Shown here piece after piece: positions 3,754 through 5,309 of a stretch of DNA of 25,896 nucleotides. Both the position numbers and the translations under genes were made by a program. The stretch comes from a virus: the UHGV virus genome UHGV-0344337. The stretch is one strand, 5' to 3'. Every line of letters begins with the position of its first letter. Positions within the stretch are counted from its first letter, which is position 1. The notes below the pieces were generated by a model, which ran no database searches, was not told where the DNA came from, and was given only the letters and a program-made list of their open reading frames with translations.

Positions 3754-3969
3754 ATGAAATCAATGGATAAGTTAACAACAGGTGTTGCCTATGGCACATC
3801 GGCGGGTAATGCTGGTTTCTGGGCATTGCAGTTACTCGATAAAGTAACTCCGTCACAGTGGGCTGCAATCGGTGTGCTGGGTAGCCTGGTATTTGGCCTG
3901 CTGACGTACCTGACAAATCTTTATTTCAAGATTAAAGAAGACAGGCGTAAGGCTGCGAGAGGAGAGTAA
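3754..3969 (+). CDS. essQ: Class II holin / pinholin (phage 21 S-type) with dual-start motif
   Basis: 71 aa beginning MKSMDKL (Met1 and Met4 give the antiholin/holin pair as in S21); two TM segments; C-terminal [13 protein letters not shown]. First gene of the lysis cassette. Confidence 0.85.
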
Positions 3970-3973
3970 TCCA

Positions 3974-4285
3974 ATGACTCAAGACTATGAACTGGTTGTG
4001 AAAGGAGTCCGTAATTTTGAGAATAAAGTTACGGTAACTGTAGCCTTACAGGACAAAGAACGCTTTGACGGTGAAATTTTTGGCCTGGATGTCGCCATGG
4101 ACCGTGTTGAAGGAGCTGCGCTGGAGTTTTATGAGGCAGCAGCCAGAATGAGCGTCCGGCAAGTCTTCCTGGAAGTAGCAGAAAAATTGTCAGAAAAAGT
4201 TGAGTCTTATCTGCAGCATCAGTACTCCTTTAAGATTGAAAATCCTGCCAATAAGCACGAGCGTCCTCATCATAAATATCTATGA
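3974..4285 (+). CDS. ydfR: DUF1327-like protein (YdfR-like) located between holin and endolysin
   Basis: 103-aa acidic ORF with no TM segment; ATG 4 nt after the holin stop; its stop overlaps the endolysin start (ATGA). Family assignment is from memory. Confidence 0.6.
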   Translation: MTQDYELVVKGVRNFENKVTVTVALQDKERFDGEIFGLDVAMDRVEGAALEFYEAAARMSVRQVFLEVAEKLSEKVESYLQHQYSFKIENPANKHERPHHKYL

Positions 4286-4815
4286 ACACAAAAATCAGAT
4301 ACGGCCTGTCGGCTGCCGTTCTGGCGCTGATTGGTGCTGGCGCATCTGCTCCTCAGATACTTGACCAGTTTCTGGACGAAAAAGAAGGTAACCACACAAT
4401 GGCATACCGCGATGGTTCTGGCATATGGACCATCTGTCGGGGTGCCACAGTGGTGGATGGAAAAAACGTTTTTCCCAATATGAAACTGTCGAAGGAAAAA
4501 TGCGACCAGGTCAACGCCATTGAGCGTGATAAGGCGCTGGCATGGGTGGAGCGCAATATAAAAGTTCCACTGACCGAGCCACAGAAAGCCGGTATCGCGT
4601 CATTCTGTCCCTATAACATTGGCCCTGGTAAGTGTTTTCCGTCGACGTTTTATAAGCGGCTTAATGCCGGTGATCGTAAAGGCGCATGCGAGGCGATTCG
4701 CTGGTGGATAAAGGACGGTGGACGTGATTGCCGCATTCGTTCAAATAATTGTTACGGTCAGGTTATTCGTCGTGACCAGGAGAGTGCATTAACCTGCTGG
4801 GGGATAGAACAGTGA
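4282..4815 (+). CDS. rrrQ: SAR endolysin (T4-lysozyme-like, GH24)
   Basis: 177 aa; N-terminal Gly/Ala-rich weakly hydrophobic SAR segment ([16 protein letters not shown]); catalytic triad spacing E-x8-D-x5-T ([16 protein letters not shown]). Confidence 0.9.
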
Positions 4816-5309
4816 ATCAGATATTCACGGTGATTTTGCTCGTGTTGGTAGGATTTGTCGTAGGTAATGTCTGGAGCGACAGAGGATGGCAAAAAAAATG
4901 GGCGGAGCGTGATGCTGCCGAATTATCTCAAGAGGTAAATGTCCAATTTGCTGCTCGAATAATTGAACAGGGGCGAAGTATATCCCGTGATGAGGCTGTT
5001 AAAGATGCACAACAGAAAGCCGCTGAAATTTCTGCCAGGGCTGCTGATCTGTCTGATAGTGTTAACCAGCTGCGTGCCGAAGCAACAAAATATGCCATAC
5101 GCCTTGACGCAGCGCAGCATACCGCAAATCTTGCCGCTGCCGTCAGAGGCAAAACAACCAAAGCCGCCGAAGGAATGCTCACCAACATGCTCGGAGATAT
5201 TGCAGCAGAAGCTCAGCTTTATGCTGAAATTGCTGACAAACGCTACATCGCAGGAGTGACTTGTCAACGGATTTATGAATCTTTAAGAGATAAAAAATAT
5301 CAGATGTAG
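4812..5309 (+). CDS. rzpQ: Rz i-spanin
   Basis: 165 aa with GTG start overlapping the endolysin stop (GTGA); N-terminal TM ([18 protein letters not shown]) followed by a long Ala/Gln/Arg-rich coiled-coil region. Confidence 0.8.
5005..5259 (+). CDS. rzoQ: Rz1 o-spanin lipoprotein, embedded in +1 frame of Rz
   Basis: Entirely inside Rz in the +1 frame; signal peptide [23 protein letters not shown] with lipobox L-T-S-C; Pro-rich mature region; GAGG 9 nt upstream of the ATG. Alternative start at 4990. Confidence 0.6.

Follow-up and report, generated by a model that had tools for sequence, protein, structure and literature searches.

The DUF1327 gene ydfR in the lysis cassette of an Escherichia coli Qin-type prophage looks like a mobile accessory gene of the late operon

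Anatomy and identity of the lysis cassette

The region from position 3754 to 5309 of the window, which denotes the whole stretch of 25,896 nucleotides that was analysed (UHGV virus genome UHGV-0344337), is a standard late-operon lysis cassette of an Escherichia coli Qin-type lambdoid prophage. Between its holin and endolysin genes lies the DUF1327 gene ydfR. The features of the cassette and its immediate upstream region, all of which are located on the plus strand, are the following:

3282-3301, plus strand: intrinsic-terminator-like hairpin 3' of cspB and 5' of the cassette (8-bp stem with 5 GC pairs, then a T run)
3745-3751, plus strand: Shine-Dalgarno sequence GGTGAGG of the holin gene
3754-3969, plus strand: class II holin gene of the phage 21 S family (71 aa, PF04971), annotated as essD or essQ in E. 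coli genomes
3754 and 3763, plus strand: predicted dual start of the holin gene, M1 giving the antiholin form and M4 the holin form
3974-4285, plus strand: ydfR, DUF1327 gene (103 aa, PF07041)
3974-4189, plus strand: N-terminal domain of ydfR (residues 1-72), the conserved unit of the DUF1327 family
4190-4285, plus strand: C-terminal tail of ydfR (residues 73-103 and stop), which differs between lineages and is here of the Qin-lineage-specific type
4282-4815, plus strand: SAR endolysin gene rrrQ (177 aa, PF00959)
4306-4362, plus strand: signal-anchor-release segment of the endolysin (approximately residues 9-27; Gly/Ala-rich, weakly hydrophobic N-terminus)
4384-4386, 4411-4413 and 4429-4431, plus strand: catalytic triad E35, D44 and T50 of the endolysin (motif E-x8-D-x5-T)
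4812-5309, plus strand: inner-membrane spanin gene Rz, rzpQ (165 aa, GTG start, N-terminal TM segment)
5005-5259, plus strand: gene for the rzoQ-like outer-membrane lipoprotein spanin Rz1 (84-aa precursor, in the +1 frame of Rz)

The holin opens with MKSM, matches the Pfam family PF04971 ('Bacteriophage P21 holin S', E 4e-34), and has both the two TM segments and the dual translational start by which class II holins of the S21 family are recognized. The endolysin could be aligned end to end with R21 (PDB 3hde, E 1e-16) and also matched RrrD (4zpu); like other SAR endolysins, it combines an N-terminal SAR segment with an E-x8-D/C-x5-T triad. The GTG start of Rz overlaps the endolysin stop as GTGA, and the Rz protein was assigned to DUF2514 (E 4e-38) and to phrog_312 ('Rz-like spanin'), its top 19-residue hydropathy mean being 2.34 at residue 4. 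Rz1 was assigned to phrog_11621 ('Rz-like spanin', E 3e-8) and carries the lipobox LTSC at 5062-5073. Its gene likely starts with the ATG at 5005, which is preceded by GAGG, and ends with the stop at 5259, so that a lipoprotein gene is embedded in the Rz gene, as is typical of two-component spanins. The initial annotation, which was made from the sequence alone, had described a holin with an MKSM dual start, a SAR endolysin with this catalytic triad and an Rz gene with an embedded Rz1, and these assignments are all upheld by the present matches. Judging from these assignments, the phage-21-family pinholin with its dual start would trigger the release of the SAR endolysin by means of small pinholes that depolarise the membrane, upon which the Rz/Rz1 pair would break the outer membrane.

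The product of ydfR matched PF07041 (DUF1327) with an E value of 1e-51 over the entire model (positions 1-93 of 93). With a score of 173.5 bits against a cut-off of 25 it belongs to this family, and it is 98% identical to the YdfR clusters found in databases. It had been described as an acidic, soluble protein of 103 aa of the DUF1327 type. The length, the family and the solubility were all confirmed, no TM segment being detectable in YdfR (best 19-residue Kyte-Doolittle mean of 0.67), whereas the acidity turned out to be only mild (pI of 5.55; 18 residues are acidic and 14 are basic). At its upstream end, the ydfR gene is separated from the holin stop codon TAA by TCCA, and its GGAGAG ribosome-binding site sits within the end of the holin gene. 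At its downstream end, the stop codon of ydfR and the start codon of the endolysin gene overlap as ATGA (4282-4285). No promoter-like site above chance was found directly 5' of the cassette. To reach the lysis genes, late transcripts would have to pass the hairpin at 3282-3301, which implies Q antitermination; a homologue of Q, ydfT, is located upstream of the cassette in a matching annotated genome.

A stretch of 1.8 kb was 99.2-99.8% identical at the DNA level to the E. coli genomes listed as matches, in which the genes are annotated as essD or essQ, ydfR, rrrQ and rzpQ, and at least 80% of the cassette is present in 2087 of the 5426 complete E. coli genomes. Comparison with the surrounding 40 kb of a matching genome showed that the window is a complete prophage of the Qin type, located next to ynfC-speG-rspAB. 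The gene order in that genome is ydfU, ydfT, cspB, ynfU, the cassette, cspI, ynfN and gnsB; lambda-like genes for the head and the tail come next. The open reading frames of the window agree with this order. The cassette is also shared by the cultured phages HannyBb, PhiR42_1 and Tritos, in which YdfR is 97-100% identical. The arrangement is thus already known, being the annotated essQ/essD-ydfR-rrrQ-rzpQ cluster of Qin-type prophages. The Qin cluster of E. coli K-12, essQ-ydfR-rrrQ-rzpQ(/rzoQ), has the same genes, order and junctions, and the same flanking genes cspB and cspI; there is no difference of substance, the window carrying in complete form the lambda-like head and tail genes that the K-12 prophage has lost. 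For the window itself our findings are accordingly of little import, since thousands of E. coli genomes, as well as cultured phages, already have annotations for both the cassette and its extra gene.

The cassette also resembles the S21-R21-Rz/Rz1 genes of phage 21 in its dual-start holin family (the two starts are listed as S21-71 and S21-68 in the record of phage 21), in the SAR endolysin triad, which is located at equal residue numbers, and in the embedded spanin pair. However, the endolysin of the window is only a distant homologue of R21 (the E value of 1e-16 mentioned above). Moreover, S21 directly overlaps R21 in phage 21 with no gene between them, whereas ydfR is found at this position in the window. 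The view that ydfR is an extra gene relative to phage 21 was therefore correct.

Distribution of ydfR and of the DUF1327 domain

The initial annotation had implied a functional tie of ydfR to lysis, and had raised the question of whether the gene is kept in all pinholin-SAR cassettes. It is not kept in all of them, as the ydfR domain was present in 100 phage records, compared to 441 records with an S21-family holin, 77% of the latter being devoid of ydfR. The gene is absent from phages 21 and 933W. Furthermore, a holin that is 100% identical to S21 is accompanied by ydfR in PhiR49_2 but not in phage 21, which shows that the holin does not need YdfR. A sporadic distribution had been named in the initial annotation as an observation that would speak against its proposal, and this part of the expectation was indeed what we found. 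The accompanying statement that no role in lysis is known for the DUF1327 family was correct.

In the Escherichia phages, ydfR was always located 3' of an S21-family holin gene. The distance between the holin stop codon and the ydfR start codon was 4 nt in eight annotated phage loci, except for the subtype represented by PhiR12_2 and Stx1_499 where it was 3 nt, and it was 4 nt in each of 88 additional loci, which were taken from viral contigs and species-representative genomes. A function directed at the holin would lead one to expect the same attachment of ydfR to the holin gene as was seen in all E. coli phages examined. In 933W, the endolysin gene R starts 4 nt past the stop codon of S, which is the same +4 position that is taken by ydfR elsewhere. 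Since ydfR occupies the slot at or near which the endolysin gene starts in phages without ydfR, it uses the GGAGAG site that the holin gene provides at its 3' end.

The ATGA overlap with the endolysin gene, which had been emphasized in the initial annotation as a sign of tight coupling, is present in the window, but it is a property of the Qin lineage: it was found in 76 of the 88 loci, all of the Qin type, while the other lineages have gaps of 55-1309 nt. The coupling that is common to the family in E. coli is instead the one of 4 nt to the holin gene. The final codons of the Qin-type ydfR represent a read-through of the leader that is conserved before the endolysin gene in ydfR-bearing phages, this leader being cctGATAAATATCC-ATG in the other ydfR-bearing phages and cctCATCATAAATATCT-ATG in the window. 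The leader has no obvious ribosome-binding site and, therefore, translation of the Qin-type endolysin may depend on the ATGA coupling.

The DUF1327 family is very small: at 90% identity, 5.8 billion proteins yielded 582 clusters, and a set of 1.84 billion proteins yielded 103 representatives at 50% identity. Of 185,579 species genomes, those with close relatives of YdfR all belonged to Escherichia or Shigella. Conservation is confined to residues 1-72, beyond which there are unrelated tails of 0 to about 260 residues that depend on the lineage. The ydfR gene of phage Evi encodes just the bare domain of 72 residues, and the other lengths encountered in the YdfR family were 103, 104, 114, 116, 176, 183, 268 and approximately 300 aa, in addition to various inserted open reading frames. 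Databases also contain many frameshifted ydfR copies. The long C-terminal extensions of YdfR relatives gave no match in PADLOC, Pfam or NCBIfam.

An exhaustive profile search additionally revealed distant, standalone DUF1327 members of 72-86 aa, the named sources of which were Sodalis ligni, Citrobacter freundii and Pantoea, besides metagenomes. Their homology to ydfR was evident from reciprocal tblastn (E 4e-7 over all 72 residues), PHROG profiles and pairwise BLAST. Pattern scans with alignments of the distant family gave no result, the conserved stretches being too few; searches with single distant members retrieved no close relative from either the genome or the viral collections, and P0259 had none in the phage collection. 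The standalone genes were found in four slots:

Slot 1: between tail genes M and L
Slot 2: 3' of the tape measure gene, in Citrobacter
Slot 3: between tail genes L and K
Slot 4: in Pantoea, between the Q antiterminator gene and a lambda-S-type holin gene with a GH19 endolysin

The window itself contains no second DUF1327 copy, and its tail genes M and L directly adjoin each other. The occurrence of the domain at five points of the late operon is the behaviour of an accessory gene and not of a lysis component. Taken together with its absence from phages 21 and 933W, this leaves the implied tie to lysis unsupported. Accordingly, ydfR is very probably not a component of the lysis system, and it looks like a mobile accessory gene, or 'moron', of the late operon. 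In our view, the useful result is thus a negative one: ydfR ought not to be counted among the lysis genes.

Closer to the family at large than to the window is the finding that the DUF1327 gene is followed by a convergent open reading frame of 70-182 residues on the minus strand in Evi, Stx2-86, PhiR12_2, 2H10 and most of the loci outside Escherichia. Two families of such partners recur. Family A (phrog_25324) is 58-75% identical between Evi, two metagenomic loci and Pantoea, and it occupies three different slots, namely holin-endolysin in Evi, M-L in one metagenomic locus (the other being on a short contig) and Q-holin in Pantoea. Family B (phrog_10490) is 46-60% identical between Citrobacter and two metagenomic loci. 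The remaining partners are mutually unrelated, which brings the overall number of unrelated partner families to at least five, and the DUF1327 subtypes track the partner families. The minus-strand reading frame of Evi is terminated just ahead of ydfR by a hairpin with a T run. None of the partners matched an entry in PADLOC, Pfam or NCBIfam, and neither a partner nor a remnant of one was found beside ydfR in the window or in most other E. coli copies. The mobile DUF1327 module with convergent partners may be the only new part of the present findings, and it is located mostly outside the window. It provides a lead in so far as DUF1327 emerges as a domain of 72 residues that is restricted to prophages of Enterobacterales, and that is found at five late-operon points, often with a convergent partner.

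Selection and predicted structure of the DUF1327 domain

Across a common set of phage pairs, dN/dS was 0.20-0.35 for the DUF1327 domain and 0.06-0.17 for holin and endolysin, and the non-synonymous sites of the domain evolve three to four times faster than those of its neighbours. The ydfR open reading frame was intact in 87 of the 88 loci. The domain is thus under purifying selection, being kept and yet evolving faster than the genes on either side.

Residues 1-72 were modelled with AlphaFold2 on the basis of an alignment of 27 sequences (pLDDT of 89, pTM of 0.76). The predicted elements are three antiparallel strands (residues 5-14, 18-27 and 34-43) and a helix with a basic face (residues 50-72). 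In the full-length model, the Qin tail has pLDDT values below 50 for residues 76-103. The residues Y5, Y53 and E54 are invariant or nearly so, the position of R44 is basic in 26 of the 27 sequences, and the helix carries a motif [IK]-K-[KQ]-A-K that is degenerate in the YdfR of the window, where it reads R-M-S-V-R. Relatives from four genera and five genomic slots retain the predicted fold even where identity is as low as 25-35%. A search of solved structures by sequence with the family profile gave no match. The canonical dsRBD has an alpha-beta-beta-beta-alpha topology and contacts RNA through helix 1, the loop between beta1 and beta2 and a K-K-x-A-K motif at the start of helix 2. The three strands and the helix predicted for YdfR may bear a weak resemblance to this fold.

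Possible functions of YdfR

A possible activity of YdfR is suggested by a recent study, in which RNase G served as the bait of a two-hybrid screen that recovered residues 1-72 of the K-12 protein, this fragment giving stronger signals with RNase E constructs (PMC13232886, 2026). [quoted passage not shown] The full-length protein, as Strep-YdfR, co-eluted with Rne1-598 and also with RNA, seen as DNase-resistant nucleic acid; since this involved a crude lysate that had not been treated with nuclease, the co-elution of RNase E could have been bridged by RNA (PMC13232886). Overexpression of YdfR in K-12 was harmless and changed the levels of few transcripts (PMC13232886).

We tentatively favour the overall explanation that ydfR is an accessory late-operon gene that acts on RNA or RNase E, although we place its probability slightly below an even chance. 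According to this explanation, ydfR would have taken over the holin-coupled translation start by using the GGAGAG site in the end of the holin gene. The N-terminal domain of 72 residues would be the working part: during late infection it would bind RNA, the catalytic half of RNase E or both, and YdfR would thereby influence the fate of transcripts and not the timing of lysis. The convergent partner would have been lost in the Qin lineage, where ydfR would also have acquired a tail of low predicted order that extends into the start of the endolysin gene. T4 Srd, T7 gp0.7 and phiKZ Dip are examples of phage proteins directed at RNase E. YdfR would resemble these proteins in being a small phage protein that associates with RNase E, as reported in PMC13232886, and it would share with T4 Srd the association with the N-terminal catalytic half of the enzyme. 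It differs from them in being expressed late and not early. That the association described in PMC13232886 reflects a physiological function is a step that we infer, and we regard RNA or RNase E binding as a plausible real function of YdfR, without considering it the more probable outcome. If the link is true, YdfR would exemplify how a temperate phage can target the decay of host RNA, or antisense RNA, at a late stage of infection.

Other explanations have to be weighed against an action on RNA or RNase E. The position of ydfR directly 3' of the S21-family holin gene in Escherichia phages, its co-translation from the late operon, and the mildly acidic character of its product as opposed to the basic cytoplasmic tail of the holin would all fit with a soluble cytoplasmic regulator that binds the basic C-terminal tail of the pinholin and adjusts when lysis occurs, as P1 LydB or T4 RIII do. 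Indeed, P1 LydB is an antiholin without a TM segment that is encoded immediately 3' of its holin gene, which is where its likeness to YdfR lies. However, no homology between the two proteins is detectable, and YdfR was rejected as a LydB homologue (hhalign probability of 0.1%). Moreover, YdfR is naturally dispensable for S21-type holins, as illustrated by phage 21, where the same holin protein works without it, and by the 77% of records with this holin family that lack the gene. With homologues residing in tail modules and ahead of an unrelated class of holins, and with no growth phenotype upon overexpression in K-12, we consider a pinholin regulator rather improbable. It is also conceivable that ydfR is a functionless, hitch-hiking remnant, which is kept for translational coupling and for the recombination flanks that it provides at a hotspot between holin and endolysin genes. 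The varied C-termini and inserted reading frames indeed mark a recombination hotspot past codon 72 or thereabouts, and the many frameshifted database copies and the lack of an obvious ribosome-binding site in the endolysin leader point in the same direction. Nonetheless, dN/dS values of 0.2-0.35, intact reading frames in 87 of 88 loci and a confidently predicted fold that is kept to 25-35% identity over four genera and five slots are difficult to reconcile with a lack of function, and this makes such a remnant highly unlikely.

[quoted passage not shown] This would account for the convergent small reading frame 3' of DUF1327 in Evi, Stx2-86, PhiR12_2, 2H10 and most non-Escherichia loci, for the recurrence of partner families A and B with matching DUF1327 subtypes, and for the hairpin and T run that terminate the minus-strand reading frame just before ydfR in Evi. 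There are also precedents from 2024 for prophage defence genes that are paired with late-operon counter-defence genes, namely TaiEcA/AtiEcA of phi80 (PMC11364771) and Tab/anti-Tab of JBD26 (PMC10884400). Many DUF1327 relatives resemble these pairs in that a small late-operon gene adjoins an accessory gene that is located on the opposite strand or constitutively expressed. The copy in the window differs from the Tai/Ati pairs, since it has no partner, and the same holds true for most E. coli copies, which show not even a remnant. It should further be noted that the phi80 genes are divergent and not convergent, that AtiEcA is unrelated to DUF1327 (DUF1327 was rejected as an AtiEcA homologue at an hhalign probability of 0.2%), that no partner resembles an entry in PADLOC, Pfam or NCBIfam, and that at least five unrelated partner families are awkward for one specific protein antidote. 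We therefore regard a counter-measure of this kind as unlikely. Still somewhat less likely in our view is a more elaborate version, in which lambdoid prophages of enterobacteria would share a mobile module of two genes, with DUF1327 as the half that stays constant and is expressed late: as a truncated dsRBD-like RNA binder encoded just upstream of a convergent reading frame expressed in the lysogen, it would either shield the sense/antisense duplex from RNase III or RNase E during lytic growth or neutralise the partner product, thereby keeping the long late transcript functional, with Qin ydfR as an orphan.

Lastly, the literature searched for 'DUF1327' by name contained a passing mention in one paper only, and ydfR is not mentioned in the main text of the envelope-integrity screen that is cited for it (PMC3879167). 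We infer that a ydfR deletion made with a kanamycin cassette could simply drive the downstream endolysin gene. In another screen, overexpression of ydfR was found to raise the streptomycin MIC three-fold.

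Translation starts within the cassette

The endolysin leader GATAAATATCC-ATG is kept among the ydfR-bearing phages (window 4240-4285 compared with loci L002-L008), and in this comparison an obvious ribosome-binding site was not seen in the conserved leader before the endolysin gene. In phages without ydfR, the endolysin is served by the GGAGAG site within the 3' end of the holin gene. In the window, this site has been taken over by ydfR.

The holin ORF itself is open upstream to an in-frame GTG at 3679, and from this start it would yield a protein of 96 aa (added stretch 3679-3753). 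Longer holins are indeed annotated in some phage records, such as those of mEp460 (92 aa) and Evi (86 aa). These extended starts have probably been mis-called.

Cold-shock units and an antisense ORF

The following features were located around the lysis cassette:
2624-3016, full-length match to the Rfam cspA thermoregulator (158.8 bits), covering cspB
3364-3585, minus strand, ynfU-type ORF of 73 codons, Cys-rich with CxxC pairs
5515-5931, full-length match to the Rfam cspA thermoregulator (109.1 bits), covering cspI

cspB and cspI each lie under a thermoregulator match, so the lysis cassette is flanked by two cold-shock units. Cold induction of the ydfR cluster is mentioned in the study of K-12 YdfR and RNase E (PMC13232886), and the thermoregulators of cspB and cspI on either side of the cassette may explain it. 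The minus-strand ORF, annotated as ynfU with a shorter start in matching genomes, is placed past the cspB terminator and ahead of the holin gene, antisense to late transcription.

Convergent partners of DUF1327 genes

At four comparison loci, an ORF of the uncharacterised family phrog_25324 (about 100 aa, members 58-75% identical) is convergent to the DUF1327 gene:
L005, 2744-3040, minus strand
L011, 693-992, minus strand
L015, 696-1001, minus strand
L109, 3740-4045, minus strand

This family lies beside DUF1327 in at least two genera, and does so in three different slots of the late operon. A second partner family, phrog_10490, shows the same behaviour (L014, L016 and L106). In a small search, the phrog_25324 partner in Evi gave a weak tblastn match (30% over 79 aa, E 0.005) to window 13764-13994, which falls within the prohead protease/major capsid fusion gene, between its protease and capsid portions. 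This similarity is probably due to chance.

Database copies of ydfR

Frameshifted ydfR is common among database copies (P0017-P0020, P0035 and P0036), in a 129-aa form that continues in another frame beyond the endolysin start and numbers 96 members in one cluster. For a truncated 94-aa form, 218 members were counted. Either the gene is decaying in cryptic prophages or the assemblies contain errors. E. coli Qin-type ydfR was also found on two contigs, L018 and L020, that carry the MAG labels of Veillonella parvula and a Bacillota bacterium, with protein identities of 97% and 84%, respectively, which most likely reflects binning contamination.
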